Shown here: positions 3,620 through 53,322 of the stretch, in pieces
Layout of the letters: the number at the start of each line of letters is the position of its first letter
How positions within the stretch are numbered: the stretch's first letter is position 1
Origin: Candidatus Moraniibacteriota bacterium
GTDB lineage: Bacteria > Patescibacteriota > Minisyncoccia > Moranbacterales > UBA2206
DNA length: 64,000 nucleotides
Reading direction: 5' to 3'
NCBI GenBank assembly: GCA_049297495.1
Contig: JBAQUL010000010.1
Location: 12,881-76,880, forward strand
Notes under the pieces: model-generated
Told to the model about the DNA's origin: nothing
The model's input: only the letters and a program-made list of their open reading frames with translations
Database searches by the model: none
Translations under genes and position numbers: made by a program

Positions 3620-3695
3620 CTGCACCTTTCCTTTCTTGGAGTTAAAGAACGTTGATAAAATAAAAAATGCCTAGAAATTAGACAGCTTATTTTTG

Positions 3696-3778
3696 TGGGC
3701 GAGGAGGGACTCGAACCCTCATGGAGCAAGCTCCGCAACATTTTAAGTGTTGAGTGTATACCATTCCACCACTCGCCC
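3696..3778 (-). tRNA. tRNA-Leu(TAA)
   Basis: Cloverleaf folded by hand: acceptor GGGCGAG/CTCGCCC, anticodon loop CTTAAAA, long variable arm, T-loop GGTTCGAGTCC. Confidence 0.75.
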
Positions 3779-3782
3779 AAAA

Positions 3783-4253
3783 TTATTTTTTTCGATTTCT
3801 CCCTCTGTGTGTTGGCTTTAGACTATGACAATTAGGACAAAGTACTCGCAAATTTTCTAGTCGATTGTCCTTACTATCACCATTAATATGATCGAGTTCT
3901 AATGGTAACCGCCCATCATTCGATATTTTATGCCACCCGCACTCTTCGCAATGCTTTGGCTTTAAACCAGCAACAAATAATCTTTTCTTCAACTTGAAGC
4001 TTTGAAAATTACTATCCTTTTTTAGAATTTCTTCTAACTCCTGACGTGGTTTTCCAATTCCACTCATTCCCTTATTCCAACCCTTTCCTGTGAAATGCTT
4101 TGTATTGATTTTGTAAAGCTCTAAAAACTTTTTTATTTGAGAATAGTTTCCTCCTGCTTCCTTCAGCTTCAATCTTTTTAAAACCTGCCTAACGCTTGTG
4201 GACAATTCAACTGCTTTTTTCAGTTCATTTTCTGTCCAACTTCTTTTTCTCAT
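3783..4253 (-). CDS. HNH endonuclease (free-standing, homing-endonuclease-like)
   Basis: C-terminal HNH motif LELDHINGDSKDNRLENLRVLCPNCH, with CEECG upstream. Sits between tRNA-Leu and tRNA-Cys. Confidence 0.7.
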   Translation of the reverse strand: MRKRSWTENELKKAVELSTSVRQVLKRLKLKEAGGNYSQIKKFLELYKINTKHFTGKGWNKGMSGIGKPRQELEEILKKDSNFQSFKLKKRLFVAGLKPKHCEECGWHKISNDGRLPLELDHINGDSKDNRLENLRVLCPNCHSLKPTHRGRNRKK

Positions 4254-4319
4254 AGTGGTATACTAATTTATTTATATCACCCCAAAAGTATACCATATTA
4301 ATCGTTTTTAACAAAACTG

Positions 4320-4390
4320 AGGTCCGGAGCAGATTCGCACTGCTGTACAGGGTTTTGCAGACCCTTGCCTAACTGCTCGGCCACCGGACC
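4320..4390 (-). tRNA. tRNA-Cys(GCA)
   Basis: Hand-folded: acceptor GGTCCGG/CCGGACC, anticodon loop CTGCAAA, T-arm AGCAG-TGCGAAT-CTGCT, discriminator U. Confidence 0.65.
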
Positions 4391-5269: not shown

Positions 5270-7264
5270 TCATTTTTTCTTTTTCTTCTTTTCCTCCTTC
5301 TTTTTCTCTTTCTCTTCTTTCTTTTTCTGTTCTTCCCATTTCTTAAGTTCCTCTTCACTCAAAACTATTTTTTCATCAGAAGAAACTGGCTTATAGCCAA
5401 CAAAGCTATCATCCGGATAGCGAGACAACACCGCATCCACAAAACTGCGCCAAATCGGAGCTGCCACGAAGACTCCATCTGAACCTGCTTTCATCGGATG
5501 CGAATCATTATTTCCCGCCCAAACTCCAACTGCAATTGATGGCGTATAGCCCACCGTCCATGCATCACGAAACTCCTGAGATGTTCCCGTCTTTGCCGCA
5601 ACAACTCTTCCAGGAATATAAAGGGGACTCCTTGGACCGAATATTGCCGAGCGAGCATCATTATCAGAGAGAACTGAATTTATTTTTCTGGCCACCTCAA
5701 TATCAATCACTTGTTCACCCTGGACTTTATTCAAATATGACTCATTATTATTATCAATAATTTCCAATATTGAATGCGACTGAAATCTTTTTCCCTCAGT
5801 AGCAAATACTGAAAAAGCGCTTACCATATCAACGAGTTTCACTTCGGCGCCACCTATTGCCATCGAAAGTCCATAGCGGTTCCGATCATTTAGCGTTGTG
5901 ATCCCAAGTCGATGTGCCATATTAATTGCGCTATCAATGCCAACAAGTGAAAGCGTTTTTATAGCTGGAATATTAAGTGACATTGAAAGTGTTTTTCTCA
6001 TCGGAAGTACGCCGTGAAATTTGCCATCATAGTTTTGTGGGATATAGCTTATCCCTCCACCATCCGGTCCAAAATTTGTCGGCTCATCAGCTATGAGTGT
6101 TTCTGGCTGATAGCCCTTTTCAAAAGCCGTCGCATAGACAATCGGCTTGAAGGATGATCCCGGTTGACGCAAGCGCAGTGCCACATTCACCTGCCCATCT
6201 ATCGTTGTATCAAAATAGTCTCGACTCCCCACCATCGCTAGCACATCACCGCTTTTTGGTTCAATTGCAACAAGTGCAGCATTGCTTGCGCCACGACTGA
6301 GATTCTTTAGTCCGCCATCTGCTACAACTTTTTCGCCAACTTTTTGTAACTCAAAATCTAGCGTTGTTATTATTTTTAATCCTCCTTTTTCTAAAAAGTC
6401 CCTACCATATTTAGTCTCCAACTGCTCAATTACGTTAAATACGAAATGGGGCGCCAAGATAGATTCTCGAAAAGGTTCCACTTTAGCCAAAATATTTATT
6501 TTCTTTGCTTTATCGATTTCAGAAGAGTCAGCTAGCCCGAGAGAATTCATCCTATCTAAAATACTTTGATGACGAGAATTTAATTTCTCCACATTATTCC
6601 CATATGGAGAATAATAAGTTGGAGCCTTAGGAAGCGCTGCCAAGAAAACGGCTTCGTCTAAACTTAGATTTTTTGCCTCTTTTCCAAAAAAAACTTCTGC
6701 TGCCGCTTGGACACCATAGGCATTGGAACCATATGGCACCTGATTAAGATAACGATCCAAAATCTGATCTTTGGTAAAATTCTTTTCAATCTTAAGCGCA
6801 ATTAATGTCTCCATGAATTTCCTGCGCAGCGTTTTCTCCCGCGACAGATAAACATTGCGAGCTAACTGTTGAGTAATCGTTGACCCTCCCTGGGAAATAT
6901 CTCCGTTTTTAACATTAACTTTCATTGCGCGCAAAATCGATAAAAAATCAACACCAAAATGACTATAAAAATTTTTATCCTCCGTTGCCACAGTCGCAAT
7001 CCGCATCACATCAGGAATTTCATCATGTGCCAAAACCTTACGATTTTCCTCGCCATGAATTTCATAGAGCACGATTCTTCCACTCCGGTCATAGATAATT
7101 GATGTTTGCGGAGGCCGAAAACTGGAGATATCAGCCACACTCGGCGTGTGATTTTTATAAATAAAAAAAGTGGCAATTGCTGTACCCAGCAATACCATAA
7201 ACAAAGCACCAAAAATGCCTAAAATAACTTCTTTAAAATAATATCCAAATGTGTGCTTTTTCAT
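5270..7264 (-). CDS. mrcA: Class A penicillin-binding protein (transglycosylase + transpeptidase), PBP1A-like
   Basis: Glycosyltransferase-51 motifs (EDKNFYSHFGVD, GGSTITQQLARN) and a transpeptidase SxxK/KTGT region (AAKTGTSQ). N-terminal TM helix and a K/E-rich C-tail. Confidence 0.85.
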   Translation of the reverse strand: MKKHTFGYYFKEVILGIFGALFMVLLGTAIATFFIYKNHTPSVADISSFRPPQTSIIYDRSGRIVLYEIHGEENRKVLAHDEIPDVMRIATVATEDKNFYSHFGVDFLSILRAMKVNVKNGDISQGGSTITQQLARNVYLSREKTLRRKFMETLIALKIEKNFTKDQILDRYLNQVPYGSNAYGVQAAAEVFFGKEAKNLSLDEAVFLAALPKAPTYYSPYGNNVEKLNSRHQSILDRMNSLGLADSSEIDKAKKINILAKVEPFRESILAPHFVFNVIEQLETKYGRDFLEKGGLKIITTLDFELQKVGEKVVADGGLKNLSRGASNAALVAIEPKSGDVLAMVGSRDYFDTTIDGQVNVALRLRQPGSSFKPIVYATAFEKGYQPETLIADEPTNFGPDGGGISYIPQNYDGKFHGVLPMRKTLSMSLNIPAIKTLSLVGIDSAINMAHRLGITTLNDRNRYGLSMAIGGAEVKLVDMVSAFSVFATEGKRFQSHSILEIIDNNNESYLNKVQGEQVIDIEVARKINSVLSDNDARSAIFGPRSPLYIPGRVVAAKTGTSQEFRDAWTVGYTPSIAVGVWAGNNDSHPMKAGSDGVFVAAPIWRSFVDAVLSRYPDDSFVGYKPVSSDEKIVLSEEELKKWEEQKKKEEKEKKKEEKKKKKK

Positions 7265-7499
7265 ATCCCCAATAATAAGACTGATTGATTTTGGAGATAG
7301 TTACCCCCATTTCTCCCTCACCATAGCATAAATTAGAAAAAGGTCAAAATTTTGGCTTATTTCAGGATAAAAAACCGATTATGTCAAATGATTTCAAGAC
7401 GTGATAGTCCAATAGCTTGGAAACGTTTTTTAGCATAGAATAATCAGTTAACTATTTTCATCTGATTAATTAATTTCTCACAAACAAAAACCTCCTTTT

Positions 7500-7760
7500 T
7501 AGGGAGATTTTTGTCTTATCTGAGCGGGTAGGGGGAATCTTTTTCATCCGTCACTTCGCACGTGCCTACGGCACAGGCTCCGTTCCTCCCTGCCTACCAG
7601 CAGGCAGGCCTCAAAACCTGGGTTTTTAAAAAAGCAAAGCAGTTTGCTTTTTTAAAATACCCTTCGATTCCCCTAAATCATTGGCCAACATAAAAAAACA
7701 AAAATCTCCTTTTTCAAGAAGATTTCTATTTTATCTGAGCGGGTAGGGGGAATCGAACCC
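7500..7760. repeat. Imperfect direct repeat of about 50 bp (AAAAACCTCCTTTTT...TTATCTGAGCGGGTAGGGGGAATC) that duplicates the tRNA-Gly 3' end and trailer, flanking a roughly 195 bp insert that carries a CCTGCCTACCAGCAGGCAGG palindrome
   Basis: 7515-7540 is identical to 7737-7760 (24 bp). The palindrome at 7600-7620 is related to the GCCTGCCTGCCGGTAGGCAGG core of the MITE-like family. Confidence 0.5.
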
Positions 7761-7809
7761 CCCTCCTCAGCTTGGAAGGCTGATATAATAGCCACTATAC
7801 GACACCCGC
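7738..7809 (-). tRNA. tRNA-Gly(TCC)
   Basis: Hand-folded: acceptor GCGGGTG/TACCCGC, anticodon loop CTTCCAA, T-arm GGGGG-TTCGATT-CCCCC. Confidence 0.8.
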
Positions 7810-7890
7810 CTTCGTCACGCCGAAGCGTGACTACGGCGGGCGAAGCCCGCTAGTAGTCCGCGAAGGCGGACTTTCTTTTTTTCAATTTTG

Positions 7891-7962
7891 TGCCGAAGGG
7901 CAGAGTTGAACTGCCGACGCAAGGATTTTCAGTCCTTCGCTCTACCGCTGAGCTACTTCGGC
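7891..7962 (-). tRNA. tRNA-Phe(GAA)
   Basis: Acceptor GCCGAAG/CTTCGGC, anticodon loop CTGAAAA, T-arm GGCAG-TTCAACT-CTGCC. Confidence 0.8.
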
Positions 7963-8023
7963 TTTTTCTATCAGCCTAAAATATAAAGTCTTGCATTTTC
8001 ATGTCGCATATTACATGATTTTG

Positions 8024-8096
8024 TGGACCCTATAGGACTCGAACCTATAACCCCCTCGGTGTAAACGAGGTGCTCTAGCCATTGAGCTAAGGATCC
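8024..8096 (-). tRNA. tRNA-Val(TAC)
   Basis: Acceptor GGATCCT/AGGGTCC, anticodon stem CCTCG/CGAGG with loop TTTACAC, T-arm ATAGG-TTCGAGT-CCTAT. Confidence 0.8.
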
Positions 8097-8110
8097 GCGC
8101 ATACTATCGG

Positions 8111-8193
8111 TGCCTTCGGCGGGACTCGAACCCGCACGGCCTTGCGACCCATGCACCTCAAGCATGTGTGTATACCAATTCCACCACGAAGGC
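8111..8193 (-). tRNA. tRNA-Leu(GAG)
   Basis: Acceptor GCCTTCG/CGAAGGC, anticodon loop TTGAGGT, long variable arm, T-loop GGTTCGAGTCC. Confidence 0.75.
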
Positions 8194-9719: not shown

Positions 9720-9814
9720 AAATCCATATTAAATTAAACATAGCCCACTAAAAGAAAACAAAAGAATCCATACGGACTCTTGCCTAAAAACACCACTATA
9801 ATACATTACCTGTG

Positions 9815-9898
9815 TGCCCAGAAGAGGACTCGAACCTCCAATCCCTTACGAGAACCAGTTCCTAAGACTGGCGCGTATACCAATTCCGCCATCTGGGC
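9815..9898 (-). tRNA. tRNA-Leu(TAG)
   Basis: Acceptor GCCCAGA/TCTGGGC, anticodon loop CTTAGGA, long variable arm, T-loop GGTTCGAGTCC. Confidence 0.8.
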
Positions 9899-9923
9899 AT
9901 TATTCAGTTTTTTACATTTCTCG

Positions 9924-10007
9924 TGGGGATGGAGAGATTTGAACTCTCACGACCTTGCGATCATAGCGTTCTGAACGCTACGTGTATACCAATTTCACCA
10001 CACCCCC
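9924..10007 (-). tRNA. tRNA-Leu(CAG)
   Basis: Acceptor GGGGGTG/CATCCCC, anticodon loop TTCAGAA, long variable arm, T-arm GAGAG-TTCAAAT-CTCTC. Confidence 0.8.
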
Positions 10008-29896: not shown

Positions 29897-29969
29897 GGGC
29901 CTGTAGCTCAGTTGGTAGAGCGCTTCCATGGCATGGAAGAGGCAAGGAGTTCGATCCTCCTCAGGTCCA
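29897..29969 (+). tRNA. tRNA-Ala(GGC)
   Basis: Acceptor GGGCCTG/CAGGTCC with the G3:U70 Ala identity pair; anticodon loop ATGGCAT; T-loop GAGTTCGATCCTC. Confidence 0.75.
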
Positions 29970-30017
29970 CACGATAAAACTGGCCAATTAGCTCAGTCTT
30001 GCCCCGCACCATTTTAT

Positions 30018-30091
30018 GGGTCTGTAGCTCAGTTGGTTAGAGCGCTACATTCACATTGTAGAGGTCTCCAGTTCGAGCCTGGACAGACCCA
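30018..30091 (+). tRNA. tRNA-Val(CAC), enclosed by a perfect 15-bp inverted repeat (30002-30016 / 30096-30110)
   Basis: Acceptor GGGTCTG/CAGACCC, anticodon loop TTCACAT, T-arm TCCAG-TTCGAGC-CTGGA. Flanks CCCCGCACCATTTTA ... TAAAATGGTGCGGGG. Confidence 0.8.
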
Positions 30092-30215
30092 CTCGTAAAA
30101 TGGTGCGGGGTGAAGTTAGAGCGTACGATTCACATTCGAGGATGTCACTGGTCCGCCTGCCCGCCTTTGGAGGAAACCCAGTATCGTCCACAACAAGCAT
30201 CCATTCATTATCCAA

Positions 30216-30287
30216 GCCTTCATAGCTCAATGGATAGAGCAAATCCGTCCTAAGGATGAGATGTAGGTTCGATTCCTACTGAGGGCA
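30216..30287 (+). tRNA. tRNA-Arg(CCT)
   Basis: Acceptor GCCTTCA/TGAGGGC, D-arm TAGCTCAATGGATAGAGCA, anticodon loop GTCCTAA, T-arm GTAGG-TTCGATT-CCTAC. Confidence 0.7.
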
Positions 30288-30297
30288 CACTATGCGG

Positions 30298-36699: not shown

Positions 36700-36775
36700 G
36701 GGCGTGTAGCTCAGTTGGTTAGAGCGCTACATTGACATTGTAGAGGTTTCAGAGGTTCGAGTCCTCTCACGCCCA
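36700..36775 (+). tRNA. tRNA-Val(GAC)
   Basis: Acceptor GGGCGTG/CACGCCC, anticodon loop TTGACAT, T-arm AGAGG-TTCGAGT-CCTCT; slightly long variable region. Confidence 0.7.
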
Positions 36776-36785
36776 CAAATAAAAA

Positions 36786-36857
36786 GGGACCATAGCTCAG
36801 TGGTAGAGCAGGGGACTCATAATCTCTTGGTCGCTGGTTCGAATCCAGCTGGTCCCA
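36786..36857 (+). tRNA. tRNA with CAT anticodon (elongator Met or Ile2/lysidine type; not initiator-like)
   Basis: Acceptor GGGACCA/TGGTCCC, anticodon loop CTCATAA, T-arm GCTGG-TTCGAAT-CCAGC. Anticodon stem lacks the three consecutive G:C pairs of initiator tRNAs. Confidence 0.7.
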
Positions 36858-36859
36858 CT

Positions 36860-45941: not shown

Positions 45942-46210
45942 AAAAATATCTTGATAACTAACATAAAAATCCCTACTGGGGATTTTTATTTTTCTTTAAA
46001 TTAGCCAAAAACTTGCTAAAACCCTCGAAATAAGCTAGACTTGAATAGTTAATAATTTATAGAAGTCCCGTTTTAAAGCGCAAATACGCCAATGCATGAG
46101 GATTTATGAATTAAGACCTACAATAATTGCGGTTCTTAATTCGTAAATCATCGTCATGCACCATACCTTATTGGTCAAACTTAGCGCCCAATTTGACTTC
46201 AAACAATAGA

Positions 46211-48319
46211 ATGGATCAAAAGAAATGGTCTCTCCAAATAGGAGGACGAATTTTAGAGATTGAAACTGGCCTATTGGCCGGACAGGCCAATGGCGCCGTC
46301 ACCGTGCGCTATGGCGACACAGTCGTGCTCGCCACAGCAGTTATGAGCAAAAAGGCTTCACGGATCAGCGGATATTTCCCTCTGATGGTAGATTTTGAAG
46401 AGCGTTATTATGCAGCCGGAAAAATCAAAGGCTCACGCTTCATCAAGCGCGAGGGTCGTCCTTCTGACGACGCAGTGCTTTCAGGACGAGCAGTAGATCG
46501 CACAGTGCGGCCACTTTTCAATCACCGCATGAGAAATGATGTACAGGTAATCGTTACCGTGCTCTCCTATGATGGAGAAAATGATCCAGATACACTGGCA
46601 ATTGTTGCCGCTTCAACCGCACTAGCAATCTCCAATATTCCTTGGAATGGCCCAGTCGCAGCTGTGAGAGTCGGAAAAAGCGGAGGGGAGTTCGTGCTTA
46701 ACCCAGTTAGCAATGGAGAGATGGCCGAAGGCGAGCTTGATCTTTTGATTTCCGGCAGTCTCGACAAAGTTAATATGATTGAAAGTGGCGCGATGGAAAT
46801 TTCCGAAGAAGAAATGCTTCGCGCTTTCACTTTTGGACAAGAAGCAATCAAAAAAATTGTGAGCTTTATCCTGGAAATTCAAAAAGAAGTTGGAAAAGAA
46901 AAAAGCACTCCGGCTCTTGTCGCTGGAACAACTGAATTTGAAGCAAAAATCAAAGAAATTCTTCTGTCTGAAAATCTTGCCGAAGCACTTTATGACAAAG
47001 ATAAGCAAGTAATCGAAGAGAAAATGAGCGCAATCAATGATAAAGTCAAGGAATATATCCAAACAAATTTTCCACAAGAAGCAGACAAGCTGAAAGAAGT
47101 AGCGGAAATTGTGTTTGAAGAAGTGTCTGATGAAATCGTGCATAAAAATATTTTAGAAAAAGAACTTAGACCGGACAGTCGAAAACTGGATGAGATTCGT
47201 CATATTGAATGCCGCACCGGAATTTTGCCACGCACCCACGGAACAGGACTTTTCACCCGTGGAGAAACCCAGGCCCTCACAGTCACAACTCTTGGCTCGC
47301 CTGGCGACCAGCAAATCATCGACACAATGGAAGTGGATATGAAAAAACGCTACATCCATCATTATAATTTTCCACCATATTCCGTTGGTGAAGTTCGCCC
47401 AATGAGAGGGCCAGGAAGACGGGAAGTTGGACATGGAGCTCTGGCTGAAAAAGCCCTCGTCCCCGTTTTACCCTCCAAGGAGGAATTTCCCTATACAATT
47501 CTCCTGGTTTCAGAAATTTTATCTTCAAATGGGTCATCTTCTATGGCCTCAACCTGTGGATCAACTCTTTCGCTCATGGACGCAGGCGTGCCGATAAAAA
47601 GACCTGTGAGTGGAATTGCCATGGGTATTATCGTAGGAGAAAATGACAAATTCAAAATCCTTACCGATATTCAAGGCTTAGAGGATCACTACGGAGACAT
47701 GGACTTTAAAGTTGCCGGGACAGAAAAAGGCATCACAGCAATGCAGATGGATGTGAAAGTTGATGGCGTTACACTAGAAATGCTTTCCGCAGTTCTCACA
47801 CAGTCTCATCAAAATCGCATGGAAATCTTAAAAAAGATTACCGACGCACTTCCAGCACCGAGAACTGAAATGTCCCAATATGCCCCAAGAATAATCACTA
47901 TGCAAATCAACCCCGAAAAAATCAGAAATGTTATCGGCTCTGGTGGCAAAATTATCAACGAAATTATTGACCAAACTGGCGTACAAATTGACATTGAAGA
48001 TAGTGGCATGATTTTTATCACATCTCCCGATCAAGTTTCAGCCCAAAAAGCCAAGGAGTGGATTGACAATCTTACCCACGAAGTTAAGGCTGGAGAACTG
48101 TTTAATGCCAAGGTGACTCGAATTATGGCTTTTGGAGCATTCGCTGAAATTCTCCCAGGACAAGAAGGATTGATTCATGTTTCTGAAATCTCAGACCGAA
48201 GAATTGAAAAAGTTGAAGACGTATTAAGTGTCGGAGATATTATTGCAGTCAAGGTTAAAGAAATTGATTCACAAGGACGCATCAACCTGTCAGCCAGAAT
48301 GGCAAAACAACCGGAATAA
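46211..48319 (+). CDS. pnp: Polyribonucleotide nucleotidyltransferase (PNPase)
   Basis: Two RNase PH domains, KH and C-terminal S1 domain (GELFNAKVTRIMAFGAFAEI...GLIHVSEI). ATG at 46211 (MDQKKWS...) preferred over the upstream ORF-track start. Confidence 0.9.
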   Translation: MDQKKWSLQIGGRILEIETGLLAGQANGAVTVRYGDTVVLATAVMSKKASRISGYFPLMVDFEERYYAAGKIKGSRFIKREGRPSDDAVLSGRAVDRTVRPLFNHRMRNDVQVIVTVLSYDGENDPDTLAIVAASTALAISNIPWNGPVAAVRVGKSGGEFVLNPVSNGEMAEGELDLLISGSLDKVNMIESGAMEISEEEMLRAFTFGQEAIKKIVSFILEIQKEVGKEKSTPALVAGTTEFEAKIKEILLSENLAEALYDKDKQVIEEKMSAINDKVKEYIQTNFPQEADKLKEVAEIVFEEVSDEIVHKNILEKELRPDSRKLDEIRHIECRTGILPRTHGTGLFTRGETQALTVTTLGSPGDQQIIDTMEVDMKKRYIHHYNFPPYSVGEVRPMRGPGRREVGHGALAEKALVPVLPSKEEFPYTILLVSEILSSNGSSSMASTCGSTLSLMDAGVPIKRPVSGIAMGIIVGENDKFKILTDIQGLEDHYGDMDFKVAGTEKGITAMQMDVKVDGVTLEMLSAVLTQSHQNRMEILKKITDALPAPRTEMSQYAPRIITMQINPEKIRNVIGSGGKIINEIIDQTGVQIDIEDSGMIFITSPDQVSAQKAKEWIDNLTHEVKAGELFNAKVTRIMAFGAFAEILPGQEGLIHVSEISDRRIEKVEDVLSVGDIIAVKVKEIDSQGRINLSARMAKQPE

Positions 48320-48526: not shown

Positions 48527-49717
48527 ATGTTTGGCTTAACAAAAAATGACTCTCAAAATCCAACAGGAGTAAAAAATAATACCCAGCCAGGCTCAGGCCC
48601 AATAAATACTTTCAACGTTGCTGATGCGCCAATTCACACAATGCAAGACGATCTGGAGAAAATAAAAAATCCTAACGCTATCATTACCAACAGCACCCGA
48701 ACAGCGGTAACTCCAAAGCAAAGTACTAGTCCATTCTCAGTCCCCATAAACGAGAACTCTCAATCATTCAAACAGCTGGAGAACAGTTCAGCTAGAGCAA
48801 AAATAATTGACAAAGAGAGTAATCAATCTTTTTTGAAAACAAGTGGAGGATTTGAAGTCGCAAATCTATTTGACACACCCAAGTCAAAGGAGGCTGAATC
48901 CAATCTAAAAGCCGCCGCCAATACTCAGATTGACCGACGTTTTATGGCCTTCTCCGCCCTTTCTGTTATATTATTAATAGCTTTGACTGCAGCCGGATTC
49001 CACTTTTTTAATAACAAATCCACTCCACCAGAAGAAGAAATAGCAATCCCCATTGAAGAGCCAACACAACCAATCGAAACGCCCATTGAAGAGCCAATCC
49101 AAAAACCCACCCTATCATTCTCTGAAACCAACCCCAACTATCTTCGAATAGAAAATGGAGCCCTAATCGCAGATAAAATCAAATCAACATTAGAACAAAT
49201 ATCCCAAGAAGGATACGTACCACCGATTGAATTCATCATGACCGATACGCAAAATAAGCCCATAACATTTAAAGCTTTTTCTGAATTGCTCTCTCTTAAA
49301 CTTTCCCCAGCAATCCTCGAATCATTAGGCGATAATTTCAGCTTATTTATGTACAATGACCTTACAGGATCAAAAATTGGCTTCGCAGCTGAATCAAAAA
49401 ACGACGCTAATCTAGAAAAAGCGCTCTCTCGAGAAGAATCTGCAATGGCCGATGAAATCAGTCCGTTGTTTTTTAACAATAGTTACAACAAAGAAAAACT
49501 ATTTAACAGCAGTGAATACGGCGGAGCGAAGATTCGTTACCAAAACATAATTTCACCAGAAATGCTATCAATTGATTATTCGATCTATAAAAACAAACTT
49601 CTAATTGGGACAACTAAGCAAACCATCAGAGCGATCATTGATAAATTCAATAGTCTATCAGCAAACATGCAAATTGAAAGCACGTCTCCAGTAGCAGAAA
49701 AAACAAATAATAATTAG
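48527..49717 (+). CDS. Hypothetical membrane-anchored protein (396 aa)
   Basis: Internal TM helix FMAFSALSVILLIALTAAGFHFF. Pro/Glu-rich repeat EEPTQPIETPIEEPIQKPT. Confidence 0.45.
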   Translation: MFGLTKNDSQNPTGVKNNTQPGSGPINTFNVADAPIHTMQDDLEKIKNPNAIITNSTRTAVTPKQSTSPFSVPINENSQSFKQLENSSARAKIIDKESNQSFLKTSGGFEVANLFDTPKSKEAESNLKAAANTQIDRRFMAFSALSVILLIALTAAGFHFFNNKSTPPEEEIAIPIEEPTQPIETPIEEPIQKPTLSFSETNPNYLRIENGALIADKIKSTLEQISQEGYVPPIEFIMTDTQNKPITFKAFSELLSLKLSPAILESLGDNFSLFMYNDLTGSKIGFAAESKNDANLEKALSREESAMADEISPLFFNNSYNKEKLFNSSEYGGAKIRYQNIISPEMLSIDYSIYKNKLLIGTTKQTIRAIIDKFNSLSANMQIESTSPVAEKTNNN

Positions 49718-49862
49718 TACCATCCACTCATTTTAGGCTCAGATAAAAGATAATTAAATAAATCTCTTTAATTATTCTAAATAAATATCTTGAAAGCAGC
49801 AATCTTTTTGAGATTTTCCGAGATCAAATTACTTAGCGTTTAAGCCAAATCATTTCTTACAT

Positions 49863-49891
49863 TGACCCAACACTTTTTTCCTGCTATAATA
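49863..49891 (+). promoter_or_regulatory. Consensus sigma-70-like promoter TTGACC-N17-TATAAT
   Basis: TTGACC at 49863-49868, 17-nt spacer, TATAAT at 49886-49891. No protein gene for the next 600 bp or so. Confidence 0.5.
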
Positions 49892-49896
49892 TATGT

Positions 49897-50500
49897 ATTG
49901 ATCGTTAAAAACTAGCTAATCAGAACGGTAAAGCAATTTTCAATCGCAATTTCCCCCTATCTGCGATTGAAAATTGTTTTACTGTTCAAGTGTTTGGGCC
50001 AACGCGCCCGAGCCGCTCTGATTTCTAACATCAGAGACCCTAAAATAAAAACAAACATTGGTATGTCCGCTTAGGAGAATAAATAAATTATTAATCTAAG
50101 TGGACATGCCAAAAATTTTTCTTAAAAATAAAAATAAAAAGAAAAATAACCTAGCATTGTCTAGACTGTACCTTAAATTCAAAGGTGAAAATTCACCAGA
50201 GAATGGTAAAACAACATCCCAAGAAGTTAGACTCGGGATAATCTTGCAGTTATGTAAATAAAATACATGAACATCATTACATTTACATCGCCACTCACCC
50301 GGCGAGAATGTCTCCGTGTTTCATGTTATTACATGACAAACACTCGGGGCGTTTAAGCCAAATTTATTTTTTATTGGGCGTCGAACGCCCTGGGTTTCCA
50401 TACCTTATGAGAATCCGGGGATAAATATTAATAATTAATGCACATAAAGAAGCACCAAAGAAAGGGTGTTTTTTGTTTTTATAGCTAATATTGCTATACT
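49897..50500 (+). ncRNA. Candidate structured non-coding RNA / long structured leader (unclassified), containing a 51-codon lysine-rich sORF at 50106-50261 whose start codon is buried in a 15-bp stem
   Basis: No ORF of 60 aa or more on either strand between 49717 and 50507. A consensus promoter directly upstream. Perfect or near-perfect long stems at 49934-49976 and 50060-50110, plus further hairpins (50386-50400 GGGCGTCGAACGCCC). Direct repeat GCGTTTAAGCCAAAT at about 49838 and about 50349. Confidence 0.25.
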
Positions 50501-50506
50501 ATTAGC

Positions 50507-50893
50507 ATGACAATAACACTTAAAAAATCGCTTGGAAACCTGGGCGAAACCATATCTGCCAATTATCTTAAAAGTAAGGGCTATGAAATAATCGCGCTTA
50601 ATTACACAAATCCTAGTGGTCGCCAGTTAGGAGAAATTGATATTATCGCCAGGGATACCAAAAAAGACGAACTAGTTTTTGTGGAAGTGAAAGCCAGAGA
50701 GATGCAGAAATTTAAGCTTACTAATCCAGAAGAAAACGTCAACTATCATAAATTACAGAAATTGGATAAAATAGCCTATTTTTATCTAAAACAACACAAT
50801 CTTACAGGTCATGATTATCGATTTGATATAATTGCAATGTGGATTGACCTAGACACGCGAAGAGCAAAAATCAAGCATATCAAGTCAATTTGA
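50507..50893 (+). CDS. yraN: YraN-family (UPF0102) endonuclease-like protein
   Basis: GETISANYLKSKGYEIIALNY...GEIDIIARDTKKDELVFVEVKAR matches the UPF0102 pattern. Confidence 0.65.
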   Translation: MTITLKKSLGNLGETISANYLKSKGYEIIALNYTNPSGRQLGEIDIIARDTKKDELVFVEVKAREMQKFKLTNPEENVNYHKLQKLDKIAYFYLKQHNLTGHDYRFDIIAMWIDLDTRRAKIKHIKSI

Positions 50894-50975
50894 GCCAGTC
50901 CTATACACAATAGACAACAGCTTGTTTTTTTGCTAAAATCAACCCATAAGAAGAATAACTAAATAAATCTAACAT

Positions 50976-51323
50976 ATGGAAAAAAACACCCTAGATGAGC
51001 TCAAAACTAAGCTATTAAAAGAAAAAATGGATTTGGAAGAAAATTTGGGACGTATTGCAAGACCGGTAGATAAGGAAAAGGGCGATTATGCCGCCACATT
51101 TGATAATATTGGGACTGACCGTGAAGACAACACCACAGAAGTCGAAGAGTATACGGAAAATCTTCCGGTAGAAATTACTTTGGAAAAAAAGCTACAAGAT
51201 ATAATCAGCGCGCTAGATAGAATGGAAAATGGTACCTATGGAAAATGCGAAAATTGCCAAAAAGAAATCGACATTGAAAGATTAAAAGCCAATCCTAGTG
51301 CAAAAACTTGCATTAAATGTTAA
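50976..51323 (+). CDS. DksA/TraR-family C4 zinc-finger protein
   Basis: C-terminal CENCQKEIDIERLKANPSAKTCIKC (C-X2-C-X17-C-X2-C) preceded by a coiled-coil N-terminus. Confidence 0.6.
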   Translation: MEKNTLDELKTKLLKEKMDLEENLGRIARPVDKEKGDYAATFDNIGTDREDNTTEVEEYTENLPVEITLEKKLQDIISALDRMENGTYGKCENCQKEIDIERLKANPSAKTCIKC

Positions 51324-51769
51324 GACGCAACAAATTGATGCCGCTCAGCCCACAATTCAAAAAAGGATTGTTCTTATTTTCAAGCACCCTTTCTTTGATT
51401 ATACTCGACCAGTTAACTAAATATTTAATCCGCTTTTTTGGCGGATTTTATATTTGCAACAAGGGGATTGCATTTGGGATAAGCCTGCCGCATTGGTTAA
51501 TATTAGGGTTTATTATCGCTTTTTTTGTTTTTACTGGTTTTTTAATTTTAAATTTTAATCCGCCAGCTGGCGGATCAAATTATCCTCTTGTTTTGATCCT
51601 ATCTGGCGCTATCTCCAATCTATTTGACCGATTATATTTCGGCTGTGTAATTGATTTTATTAATCTTGAGATTTGGCCGGTTTTTAATCTGGCTGATATA
51701 TTGATCTGTGTTGGAGTATTTCTTTTAATTATAAATCTCAATACTTCCTACCCCAAAAAGAAAAATTAA
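51317..51769 (+). CDS. lspA: Lipoprotein signal peptidase (signal peptidase II)
   Basis: NKGIAFG, FDRLYFGCVIDFI, FNLADILI match LspA conserved blocks. The start overlaps the upstream stop (ATGTTAA); an alternative ATG lies at 51338. Confidence 0.75.
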   Translation: MLRRNKLMPLSPQFKKGLFLFSSTLSLIILDQLTKYLIRFFGGFYICNKGIAFGISLPHWLILGFIIAFFVFTGFLILNFNPPAGGSNYPLVLILSGAISNLFDRLYFGCVIDFINLEIWPVFNLADILICVGVFLLIINLNTSYPKKKN

Positions 51770-51795
51770 GCTAAATAAAATTAACAAAACAAAAT

Positions 51796-53322
51796 ATGTC
51801 ATCAAAGGTTTTTTCCGCTGCAGTCATTGGCCTTAAAAGCGCTCTGGTTGAAGTTGAAGTGGACACCCTTTCAGCTGGAATGCACCATTTCAATATAGTC
51901 GGGCTACCAGACACAGCAATCAAAGAATCCCAAGACCGTGTCAGCTCGGCCATTAAAAATAGTGGCCTTATTGCACCTCATCGCTGTGGCAGAATCACGG
52001 TTAACCTCGCTCCAGCTGATTTGCCAAAAGTTGGTCCACTCTACGACCTACCAATCGCACTCGGATTCCTAGTTGCTACAAAGCAACTCTCTTTTGATCA
52101 TACCAACAAGCTCTTTATTGGAGAACTTTCATTAGATGGACGAATTAGGCCTGTGAAGGGTGTTCTACTTGTCGCGCTGCTTGCTAAAGAAAAAAATATC
52201 GACACACTCTTTGTTCCAGCAGAAAATGCCAAAGAAGCCTCCATTATTGAAAACCTGAATATTATCGCCGTTTCCACGCTCAAAGAACTAATTGATCATC
52301 TCGAGAATAGATCCGCAATAAGTTTATTCCCAAAAACAGATTTAGAAAAACTATTCCACGAAGAAGGCCATCAATATGACATGAAAAACATCAAAGGCCA
52401 AGAGCATGCTAAGAGGGCATTGGAGATTGCATCGGCGGGCGCGCACAACATCATCCTAAACGGACCACCTGGATCAGGCAAAACTCTTCTTGCCAAGACT
52501 ATGACGTCAATCTTGCCTCGACTCACTATCGCAGAAGCATTAGAGGTAACAAAGATATTTTCCGTTGCCGGCTATCTTCCAAAAGAAAACAGCCTTATTA
52601 CAAAAAGACAGTTTCGTTCGCCTCATCACTCAGCGAGCGCCGCCTCGCTTGTTGGCGGAGGAACTTTTCCAAAACCTGGGGAGATTAGTCTAGCTCATCG
52701 TGGTATACTATTTCTAGATGAGTTTTCTGAATTCTCGCGCTCTGTTCTTGAGAATCTTCGCCAACCATTGGAAAATGGGCTTATCACAATTTCCCGCGCT
52801 CAAGGCACATTGGAATTCCCCGCTCGTTTCACTCTGGTTGCTGCTATGAATCCTTGCCCTTGCGGCAATGCCACTGATCCAGAAAAAGCCTGTTCATGCA
52901 GTCCTGGCAATATTATTCGCTATCAAGCCAAAATATCCGGACCAATTCTTGATCGAATTGATCTCCACATTGAAGTTCCTCGGCTAAAATTCGAAAAACT
53001 TTCTGAAAATAGCCAACAAGAAAACTCTGATAGCATTCGTGAGCGCGTTGAAAAAGCTCGTAAAATTCAAAAGAGACGCTTCTTAGACTCTAGAATAATT
53101 TCAAATTCAGAAATGGAAAGCGAGCAAATTAAAAAATATTGTCAATTAGACGAAGCTGGGGCTGAGTTAATGAAAAATGCGCTGTCTCGGTTTTATCTCA
53201 GCGCCAGAGCTTATTTTCGCATAATTAAAGTTGCCAGGACAATTGCTGATCTTGAGGAAGCGGAAAACATCAAACCAACCCACATTGCTGAAGCGATTCA
53301 ATATAGATTTAAAAGCGAGTAG
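51796..53322 (+). CDS. comM: Mg-chelatase-like AAA+ ATPase YifB/ComM
   Basis: N-terminal Lon-protease-like domain, Walker A GPPGSGKT, Walker B FLDEF, C-terminal region; 508 aa. Confidence 0.85.
   Translation: MSSKVFSAAVIGLKSALVEVEVDTLSAGMHHFNIVGLPDTAIKESQDRVSSAIKNSGLIAPHRCGRITVNLAPADLPKVGPLYDLPIALGFLVATKQLSFDHTNKLFIGELSLDGRIRPVKGVLLVALLAKEKNIDTLFVPAENAKEASIIENLNIIAVSTLKELIDHLENRSAISLFPKTDLEKLFHEEGHQYDMKNIKGQEHAKRALEIASAGAHNIILNGPPGSGKTLLAKTMTSILPRLTIAEALEVTKIFSVAGYLPKENSLITKRQFRSPHHSASAASLVGGGTFPKPGEISLAHRGILFLDEFSEFSRSVLENLRQPLENGLITISRAQGTLEFPARFTLVAAMNPCPCGNATDPEKACSCSPGNIIRYQAKISGPILDRIDLHIEVPRLKFEKLSENSQQENSDSIRERVEKARKIQKRRFLDSRIISNSEMESEQIKKYCQLDEAGAELMKNALSRFYLSARAYFRIIKVARTIADLEEAENIKPTHIAEAIQYRFKSE

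Follow-up and report, generated by a model that had tools for sequence, protein, structure and literature searches.

Within a 64-kb window of a Candidatus Moraniibacteriota genome (contig JBAQUL010000010.1; the window is the whole stretch of DNA analysed here, and all positions refer to it), we identified an independent gene for a large structured non-coding RNA (ncRNA) of about 585 nucleotides (nt), located directly upstream of yraN and retained, in a single copy and with conserved synteny, by one clade of this phylum. A first-pass annotation of the window had flagged this region as a candidate structured RNA, with a novel large ncRNA among its options, and both proposals are upheld: the sequence is conserved and its helices covary, promoter and terminator are kept across homologs, and nothing in it bears the signature of an Rfam family, tmRNA or RNase P. 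The locus combines its own promoter, an intrinsic terminator, a covariation-supported structure and the absence of a conserved open reading frame (ORF), as expected of a stand-alone ncRNA gene, and we regard it as very likely that it encodes a real stand-alone structured ncRNA whose family is not in Rfam. The RNA appears to represent a new family of large ornate bacterial ncRNA, so far bounded to one Moranbacteria clade and endowed with an unusual, conserved and putatively bistable element.

As the first-pass annotation had reported, positions 49718-50506 hold no ORF of 60 amino acids or more in either direction, and the longest one (50100-50261) has 53 amino acids. Related loci were gathered by a PNPase-based scan of species-representative genomes. 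Using the intergenic region as an nhmmer query, 13 of the 14 related Moranbacteria loci were matched at the syntenic position (E = 1e-74 to 2e-14), and the fourteenth (L008) was recovered by profile (E = 3e-59), bringing the element to 14/14. In metagenomes, a pattern of three conserved RNA motifs retrieved 49 contigs, at least 48 of which were true homologs (profile, E = 1e-137 to 1e-37). Wherever flanks were available, the gene order was rpsO-x-pnp-hyp-[RNA]-yraN-dksA-lspA-comM, and each of more than 60 loci carried a single copy of the RNA, invariably in this place. Since the flanking hypothetical protein and YraN are only 25-40% and 38-73% identical among the 14 related genomes, the non-coding stretch is at least as well conserved as its coding neighbours. 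The element was absent from the closest outgroup (L014, a Moranbacteria with a PNPase 60% identical), which carries tightly packed unrelated genes instead, and other lineages of the Candidate Phyla Radiation (CPR; e.g. L017, L020) display pnp-hyp-dksA-comM with neither yraN nor the intergenic gap. Rfam searches of ten pnp loci from other CPR lineages gave tRNAs alone, the 17 pattern matches obtained in viral contigs were all due to chance, with no real homolog, and we found no description of such an RNA in the literature on structured ncRNAs of CPR or Moranbacteria.

The transcription unit is delimited by conserved signals at both ends (Table 1). The TTGACC-N17-TATAAT promoter of the first-pass annotation is present, one base below the 49863-49891 given there, and its -10 box is extended. 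A consensus scan scored it at 11 of 12 positions plus the TG extension; because the same scan returned 8 promoter-like sites for 6.3 expected by chance, this match alone proves little. Nonetheless, TTGAC-N17-TGnTATAAT occupies the equivalent place in all 58 homologs with an intact 5' end (58 of 63 in total), and TTGAC and TA.A.T are invariant in the homolog alignment. At the other end, scanning revealed an intrinsic terminator, with a terminator-like hairpin and T-run at 50447-50474, that had gone unmentioned in the first-pass annotation, and a hairpin followed by a U-run closes the RNA in 45/47 homologs. The homologous RNAs are 466-643 nt long, counting from the -10 box up to the U-run. The strand was fixed as + because G-U pairs are abundant, for instance between alignment columns 197/564 (UG in 46) and 207/232 (UG in 20).

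The + strand of 49895-50485 folds at -192.7 kcal/mol, with z = -13.0 against dinucleotide shuffles, compared with z = -6.8 for the - strand; this degree of structure lies far outside chance. An unbiased stem scan, which searched every pair of columns in an alignment of 50 sequences for consecutive compatible pairs showing double changes, recovered P2, P3, the inner part of the 5' hairpin H1, P7, P8 and two long-range interactions. The first is a helix of 12 base pairs (bp) between the 3' arm of H1 (strand b, CUUUCACUGUUC) and a segment located ~220 nt downstream (strand c, GAACGGUAAAAG). The second is a kissing-loop pseudoknot of six pairs, joining the P3 loop (UCUGAC or CCUAAC) to the P6 loop (GUCAGA or GUUAGG). 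Furthermore, P7 and P8 recast two apparent local CAUG hairpins as one long arm. The 15-bp perfect stem of the first-pass annotation (49934-49948 with 49962-49976) is real and forms the inner part of the 26-bp H1. Altogether, the fold comprises at least 12 helices, arranged as the 26-bp 5' hairpin, a central domain made up of P2, P3, P5b and the two conserved A-rich linkers, the kissing-loop pseudoknot, a P7-P10 arm and a P11-P12 arm.

For a formal pair count, helices were mapped from the window onto a 47-sequence MAFFT alignment (A1; sequences 50-92% identical to the window). Over the 81 modelled pairs, 88.8% of the cells were paired, against 36-45% when partners were slid by 1-3 columns. The comparative alignment for covariation that the first-pass annotation had proposed as a check revealed changes on both sides of 60 of the 81 pairs, in 516 cells, and none of 500 shuffles reached the observed value on any of five measures. 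Covariation extends over the individual helices (Table 1). In the P11/P12 region (helices 9-11), where the alignment is partly offset, 56-88% of the cells were paired. Sequence-by-sequence folding placed the conserved UCACCC of the P9/P10 segment in a hairpin loop in 46/47 cases, and P6 presented its pseudoknot motif at least 80% unpaired in 30/47 minimum-energy folds. Two further pairings were tried and rejected: GUUCUUU with AGAGAAC, which shows no compensation in sequences carrying GUACCUU, and the L10 loop UCACC with the GGUGA of strands a or c, which is uncompensated in the window's subclade (GGUAA). No cis partner was found for the C-rich L1 loop of H1, and GGGGG-type trans targets adjoining start codons showed no pattern in the window.

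The most unusual feature of the RNA is an alternative pairing among three strands. Two near-identical strands lying ~280 nt apart are each complementary to strand b, namely a (GAACGGUGAAAG), its partner in H1, and c (GAAYGGUGAAAG), and both helices covary (Table 1). At the four variable columns of b (191-194), both partners follow it. Column 194 forms GC 22, AU 14 and GU 10 with a, and UA 24 and CG 22 with c; column 193 forms AU 34, GC 10 and GU 3 with a, and UA 36 and CG 9 with c; column 192 forms AU 34 and GC 8 with a, and UA 36 and CG 7 with c. Compensation by a alone was observed in L119 (GAUGG with CCAUC) and in L116 and L098 (C-G), and compensation by c alone in L008 (GGAU with GUCC), L012, L086 and L013. 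Mean duplex energies are -14.1 kcal/mol for a:b and -15.7 kcal/mol for b:c, the latter being stronger in 35/47 homologs. As the two helices exclude each other yet both covary, a:b and b:c are mutually exclusive pairings that are both kept by selection. This exchange suggests a conformational switch. A fourth strand z located 5' of a, which would give an attenuator-like 1:2/2:3/3:4 series, was discarded, being confined to one clade and barely better than shuffles.

Taken as a whole, these data are in our view best explained, by a modest preference, by a stand-alone ncRNA that adopts two conformations and plays a scaffolding or regulatory role in trans. The RNA would alternate between two mutually exclusive states, one with H1 extended (a:b) and one with the central domain closed (b:c plus the pseudoknot). 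It would act in trans by displaying conserved single-stranded elements to a partner, either protein or RNA; these elements comprise the two C-rich loops (L1 and L10) and the A-rich linkers with their (AAN)n-like pattern. The a/b/c exchange could either gate this presentation or guide folding. The specific scaffold-with-switch mechanism, drawn from the anatomy of the RNA alone, is more tentative than this overall account. Several observations weigh against the proposed reading. Both transcript ends were deduced purely from sequence signals. The shuffle control ignores phylogeny, so that the slid-partner control, which accounts for it, is the decisive one. The L1 motif UUUCCCCCUA, kept in most homologs, is lost in L124/L085, L095, L083, L119, L011 and L008, and the C-rich L1 loop can therefore not be essential. 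Alternatively, the a:b/b:c duality may stem from a transient intermediate of folding or from pairing between molecules. Finally, some relatives have only 4-11 nt between the terminator and the yraN start, with no recognisable promoter, leaving room for a role in cis.

Intermolecular pairing is central to a rival explanation in which the RNA works as a ribozyme or assembles with itself into an RNA-only homo-oligomer, like OLE, ROOL or GOLLD, with b:c and/or the P3-P6 loops bridging copies; the a/b/c redundancy would then represent strand exchange between molecules. Size and ornateness are comparable (at least 12 helices, conserved loops and A-rich linkers), and kissing loops found by covariation in ROOL and GOLLD proved to be intermolecular bridges (PMC12286853). 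Moreover, the b:c duplex is as strong as a:b although its intramolecular closure spans more than 200 nt, and the palindrome CAUG occurs in all four P7/P8 strands. On the other hand, covariation cannot separate intra- from intermolecular pairs because the paired loops differ in sequence, no covarying symmetric palindromic loop was found, and no cleavage-site motif of a known ribozyme was matched in Rfam. We consider this explanation unlikely. The broader proposal is that of an undescribed class of large ornate RNA, particular to a lineage of ultra-small Patescibacteria, whose function would depend on an evolutionarily maintained bistable exchange of b coupled to the pseudoknot. Such an RNA would serve as a ribozyme, an RNA-only assembly or the core of a ribonucleoprotein essential to these organisms with reduced genomes; we give this proposal a little less than an even chance.

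A role in cis was also considered, the first-pass annotation having suggested a leader of yraN. The RNA would then be a giant attenuator- or riboswitch-like leader of yraN-dksA-lspA-comM, in which the a/b/c switch senses a signal and sets terminator read-through. Such a leader would be consistent with mutually exclusive conserved helices, typical of riboswitch expression platforms, with the short terminator-to-start gaps noted above, with the constant position of the RNA directly 5' of yraN on the same strand, and with the joint absence of RNA and yraN at the equivalent position of other CPR (pnp-hyp-dksA-comM). However, adjacency carries little weight because synteny is inherited within a single clade, from which the joint absence is also expected. 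The switch strands lie at least 230 nt 5' of the terminator, behind a spacer variable in length and sequence, and no conserved segment is complementary to an arm of the terminator, which is strong and present in 45/47 homologs. To our knowledge, an RNA of 466-643 nt would be far larger than any known riboswitch. Furthermore, 12 of 38 loci, those of the window and its subclade among them, show a -10 box belonging to yraN that ends 6 nt before its start; in a few of the 38 loci the gap to yraN is too short for a promoter to be judged. In the window, this extended -10 box (TGCTATACT, 50492-50500) stops 6 nt before the ATG, with no Shine-Dalgarno sequence, suggesting that in the window's subclade yraN is transcribed from its own promoter as a leaderless mRNA. 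The leader hypothesis is thus improbable overall: the terminator and the yraN -10 box argue against it in the window's subclade, and some relatives leave room for it.

Known families provided no better account. The first-pass annotation had seen no tmRNA, RNase P, SRP or 6S signature and had proposed an Rfam scan. Rfam, ARAGORN and RNase P hallmark searches were all negative for the locus: at gathering score, the 4227 covariance models of Rfam 15 returned 13 tRNAs and nothing else over the whole window, so that no family was assigned. With E up to 10, region 49650-50600 gave best matches of E at least 0.4, of hairpin type and to unrelated miRNA/lncRNA models, and ten diverse homologs searched with E up to 1 gave nothing below E = 0.12; the OLE, ROOL, GOLLD, HEARO and raiA models matched neither the window nor these homologs. 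A highly diverged housekeeping RNA (RNase P RNA, tmRNA, SRP RNA or 6S RNA) missed by standard models in CPR would fit the near-consensus promoter and the presence of the element in every genome of the clade. Indeed, default Rfam thresholds missed RNase P RNAs in 10 of 35 CPR genomes, the diverged forms being detected at 5 bits or more (Lui et al., PMC8172020). We nevertheless judge this explanation very unlikely. No match to RF00010 or RF00011 appeared with E up to 10 for the window region or up to 1 for the ten homologs, in searches where scores below ~15 bits are not displayed. The conserved strands of the RNase P P4 helix read GAAAGUC.. (CR-I) and ACAGAA...GGCUUA (CR-V), and they occurred in the correct order in 0/47 homologs, the E. 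coli M1 control being positive. When the two ends of the RNA were paired, the best duplex averaged -12.2 kcal/mol, compared with -12.9 kcal/mol for shuffled 3' regions; as the ends pair no better than chance, there is neither an RNase P P1 helix nor a tmRNA acceptor stem. In addition, the pseudoknot links two hairpin loops, whereas P4 is formed by a 5' and a 3' strand, and CUCACCC sits in a hairpin loop. Apparent short likenesses to E. coli M1 RNA (GGUGAAAGGG; CUCACCCGGAGC; GCCAAAUA) do not hold, this loop, the motif order and the architecture all being at odds with them. ARAGORN, run on the window and on the 47 homologs, detected neither a tmRNA nor a tRNA-like domain, the frames examined for a tmRNA tag peptide held no conserved ORF, and a P4 hairpin with a UAAUA loop, considered in that context, is missing in several clades. 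6S and SRP RNA were rejected as well, the multi-domain RNA of 466-643 nt with its pseudoknot contrasting with their single interrupted hairpin, which bears a central bubble in 6S and domain IV loops with a GNAR tetraloop in SRP, and no Rfam match being obtained.

Two further options of the first-pass annotation were abandoned. The first was a riboregulated small ORF (sORF), which does exist, from GTG 50100 to 50261 (53 amino acids) or from ATG 50106 (51 codons), along with the near-perfect stem that overlaps its start (50060-50074 with 50096-50110). We accordingly weighed the possibility that the region is the mRNA of this 51-53-codon lysine-rich sORF, or a decayed protein gene. Besides the ORF itself, the argument for it is that the invariant CCAGAGAAYGGU (50196-50207) reads Pro-Glu-Asn-Gly in the sORF frame, its sole variable base being synonymous. 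However, this apparent coding conservation is explained by RNA pairing, because C and U both pair with the G of strand b (GC 21, GU 23). In the frame set by this motif, a start codon is missing from 21/47 homologs, the distance to the downstream stop ranges over 15-273 nt, and beyond PENG the peptides share no relationship; in L097, whose RNA is 92% identical, the sORF is already truncated and replaced by a different 24-amino-acid ORF. Moreover, the start codon lies inside a hairpin restricted to the subclade, indels are not multiples of three, and the sole Pfam match, NUMOD3, is sub-threshold (16.6 bits for a cutoff of 20.4, E = 0.0078). No ORF is conserved among the homologs in the frames examined; the first-pass annotation had named a coding gene at orthologous loci, frameshifted here, as an outcome refuting a structured RNA. 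With start, stop and peptide all unconserved, the coding reading is refuted for practical purposes and retains only a negligible probability.

The second was a degenerate mobile element, or an integration scar bounded by 15-nt direct repeats. The repeat is present, one base lower than had been implied (49836-49850 and 50349-50363), and an exact 15-nt repeat 513 nt apart was estimated to be unlikely by chance in 1.1 kb. By contrast, more than 60 loci each carry the RNA once and in an identical position, transposase and integrase genes are absent, and viral contigs gave no real match. The downstream copy of the repeat is base-paired and conserved within the P11/P12 arm, while the upstream copy lies outside the transcript and only its core, AAGCCAAA (or GAGCCAA), is kept, in the window's subclade alone (L097, L089, L107, L124, L110). 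The direct repeat is therefore not a target-site duplication, and strict single-copy synteny together with the placement of the repeats refutes a mobile origin, to which we attach hardly any likelihood. The box AAGCCAAA upstream of the -35 resembles the P12 strand of the RNA itself (AGCCAAAU). This upstream copy may be a promoter-upstream box, either regulator-binding or UP-like, and autoregulation through it is conceivable.

Table 1 Features of the RNA gene and tRNA clusters of the window (last two columns: pairs that covary, and alignment cells paired, in A1)
Feature	Position	Strand	Description or basis	Covarying pairs	Cells paired
Direct repeat, upstream copy	49836-49850	+	GCGTTTAAGCCAAAT; outside the transcript, ~12 nt 5' of the -35 box		
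Sigma-70-type promoter	49862-49890	+	-35 TTGACC 49862-49867, 17-nt spacer, extended -10 TGCTATAAT 49882-49890		
Predicted primary transcript, ~585 nt	49897-50484	+	5' end from -10 spacing, 3' end from T-run		
Hairpin H1, 26 bp, 92% complementary	49923-49987	+	arm a 49923-49948, arm b 49962-49987	18/26	89.7%
H1 terminal loop L1	49949-49961	+	conserved C-rich motif UUUCCCCCUA		
Strand b, outer part	49977-49987	+	UUUUACUGUUC; pairs with a (49923-49933) or c (50201-50211)		
Helix b-c	49977-49987 with 50201-50211	+	alternative to a-b	5/11	98.1%
Hairpin P2	49992-50013	+	covariation	8/8	93.1%
Hairpin P3	50016-50036	+	loop UCUAAC 50024-50029, 5' half of pseudoknot	6/7	92.1%
Pseudoknot P3-P6	50024-50029 with 50226-50231	+	kissing loops	6/6	97.9%
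A-rich linker 1	50042-50057	+	AAAAUAAAAACAAACA; sequence conserved, many invariant A positions		
Subclade hairpin	50060-50110	+	takes the place of optional P4; holds the sORF start codon		
A-rich linker 2	50124-50149	+	AAAAAUAAAAAUAAAAAGAAAAAUAA; conserved		
Conserved core	50168-50211	+	GUWCYUU...AAAGG-P5b-CCAGAGAAYGGUAAAA; alignment		
Hairpin P5b	50184-50187 with 50194-50197	+	inside core		
Strand c	50201-50211	+	inside core		
Hairpin P6	50216-50239	+	loop GUUAGA 50226-50231, 3' half of pseudoknot		
Long 3' arm, P7-P10	50250-50336	+	four stacked helices; covariation		
P7	50250-50257 with 50329-50336	+		7/8	91.8%
Internal loop between P7 and P8	50258-50264	+	AUAAAAU, conserved; conserved form ACAAAAU		
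P8	50265-50269 with 50322-50326	+		4/5	98.3%
P9	50279-50283 with 50307-50311	+			
P10	50288-50292 with 50301-50305	+			
Loop L10	50293-50300	+	ACUCACCC, caps the P7-P10 arm; conserved; CUCACCC		
P11	50343-50353 with 50384-50394	+			
P12	50357-50363 with 50373-50379	+			
Direct repeat, second copy	50349-50363	+	part of the P11/P12 arm (50343-50394)		
Motif after P11	50398-50404	+	CCAUACC/CCAAC, conserved		
Intrinsic terminator	50447-50484	+	hairpin and U-run; scan		
tRNA clusters	3695-4390, 7737-8193, 9814-10007, 29897-30288, 36700-36858				

Beyond this common anatomy, the core motif reads GUUCUUUCAAA...AAAGGC-loop-GCCAGAGAAYGGU across homologs, and the two A-rich linkers follow an (AAN)n-like pattern. 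The linker region tolerates insertions, since two subclade hairpins are inserted there. The hairpin at 50060-50110 is shared by the window, L089, L097 and L107, L128 has a looser form of it, and other clades have a short optional P4 hairpin with loop GAAAAAUAAUA, or nothing. The second insertion, a CTAG...CTAG palindromic hairpin (50151-50164), was observed in the window, L097, L089, L107, L124, L085 and L002. An extra hairpin of ~60-70 nt located 3' of GUUCUUUCAAA in L009, L081, L084 and L126 (A1 columns ~470-535) forms an optional domain.

The genes surrounding the RNA were also characterized. On its 3' side, the gene starting at 50507 encodes a UPF0102/YraN protein (Pfam E = 8.6e-24), followed by a DksA/TraR zinc-finger protein, LspA and ComM. 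YraN has been described as a single-stranded DNA endonuclease partner of the ComM helicase, resolving transformation D-loops (preprint 10.1101/2024.02.06.579203), and the yraN-dksA/traR-lspA-comM cluster (50507-53322) unites both nuclease and helicase. This cluster is therefore competence-related, with no mechanistic tie to an RNA. Loci L015-L021, L064, L066 and L071 of other CPR keep pnp-hyp-dksA-comM without yraN at the equivalent position. On the 5' side, the 396-amino-acid protein (48527-49717) matched no Pfam family. It is 25-40% identical among the Moranbacteria that carry the RNA, and weak blastp matches to it (23-31% identity) sit beside pnp in several lineages of CPR; it is conserved in CPR and has no assigned function. 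Further upstream, the PNPase ORF (46127-48319) begins mechanically at TTG 46127, and its true start probably lies downstream, since homologs align from about residue 28, near 46208. A single genome (L003) has an insertion of ~2.5 kb (5520-8086) that separates the hypothetical gene from the RNA, which still adjoins yraN. The source records of L004, L006, L009 and L011, titled 'uncultured Bdellovibrionales', and of L010, titled 'Fimivivens', are probably mislabelled; their PNPase, synteny and RNA group them with Moranbacteria. Elsewhere in the 64-kb window, Rfam and ARAGORN located 13 tRNA genes, grouped in several tight clusters.

We know of only a handful of bacterial RNAs longer than ~400 nt with complex conserved folds, and the large bacterial RNAs whose roles are understood are ribozymes or central ribonucleoprotein cores. 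We found no report of large ornate RNAs in CPR, whose genomes are so streamlined that non-essential DNA has little place in them. That this RNA gene of ~0.5 kb, with its consensus promoter, is kept in every genome of the clade therefore points to an important function. The doubly covarying and mutually exclusive a:b and b:c helices provide a concrete hypothesis that is testable by mutation, and an alignment of 47-60 sequences is sufficient to seed a covariance model and map the distribution of the family.

Compared with known systems, the Moranbacteria RNA resembles OLE, ROOL and GOLLD in being a stand-alone RNA of ~0.5-0.8 kb whose many helices covary, in having loops and A-rich elements that are conserved as well as tertiary or kissing-loop pairs visible by covariation, and in combining a narrow phylogenetic range with a function that is at best partly understood. 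It differs from them by the lack of an Rfam match at E up to 10, by its host, a Patescibacteria, and by a fixed chromosomal pnp-yraN locus that is neither phage- nor tRNA-associated nor beside oapA. It also has a conserved pair of mutually exclusive helices, which are not known to be a feature of these three RNAs. OLE, ROOL and GOLLD recently proved to form unexpected RNA-only assemblies (PMC12286853). With RsaE/RoxS-type small RNAs, the common trait is the exposure of C-rich loops, here in H1 (UUUCCCCCUA) and L10 (CUCACCC), and one homolog gave a weak RsaE match on H1 (27.8 bits, E = 0.54, for a gathering score of 79 bits). By contrast, the Moranbacteria RNA is five times larger, its L1 loop is lost in several lineages, and no GGGGG-type targets were seen beside start codons in the window. 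Like RNase P RNA, including its CPR forms that escape Rfam thresholds (PMC8172020), it is large and has a strong promoter and a pseudoknot, but it is devoid of P1 and of a CR-I/CR-V P4 and follows another motif order and domain architecture. Finally, it resembles riboswitch and attenuator platforms in having one strand, b, with two competing partners, compensatory changes and near-equal energies, but here the competing strands lie ~280 nt apart, seemingly uncoupled from terminator and ribosome-binding site, in what is apparently a terminated, independent transcript.

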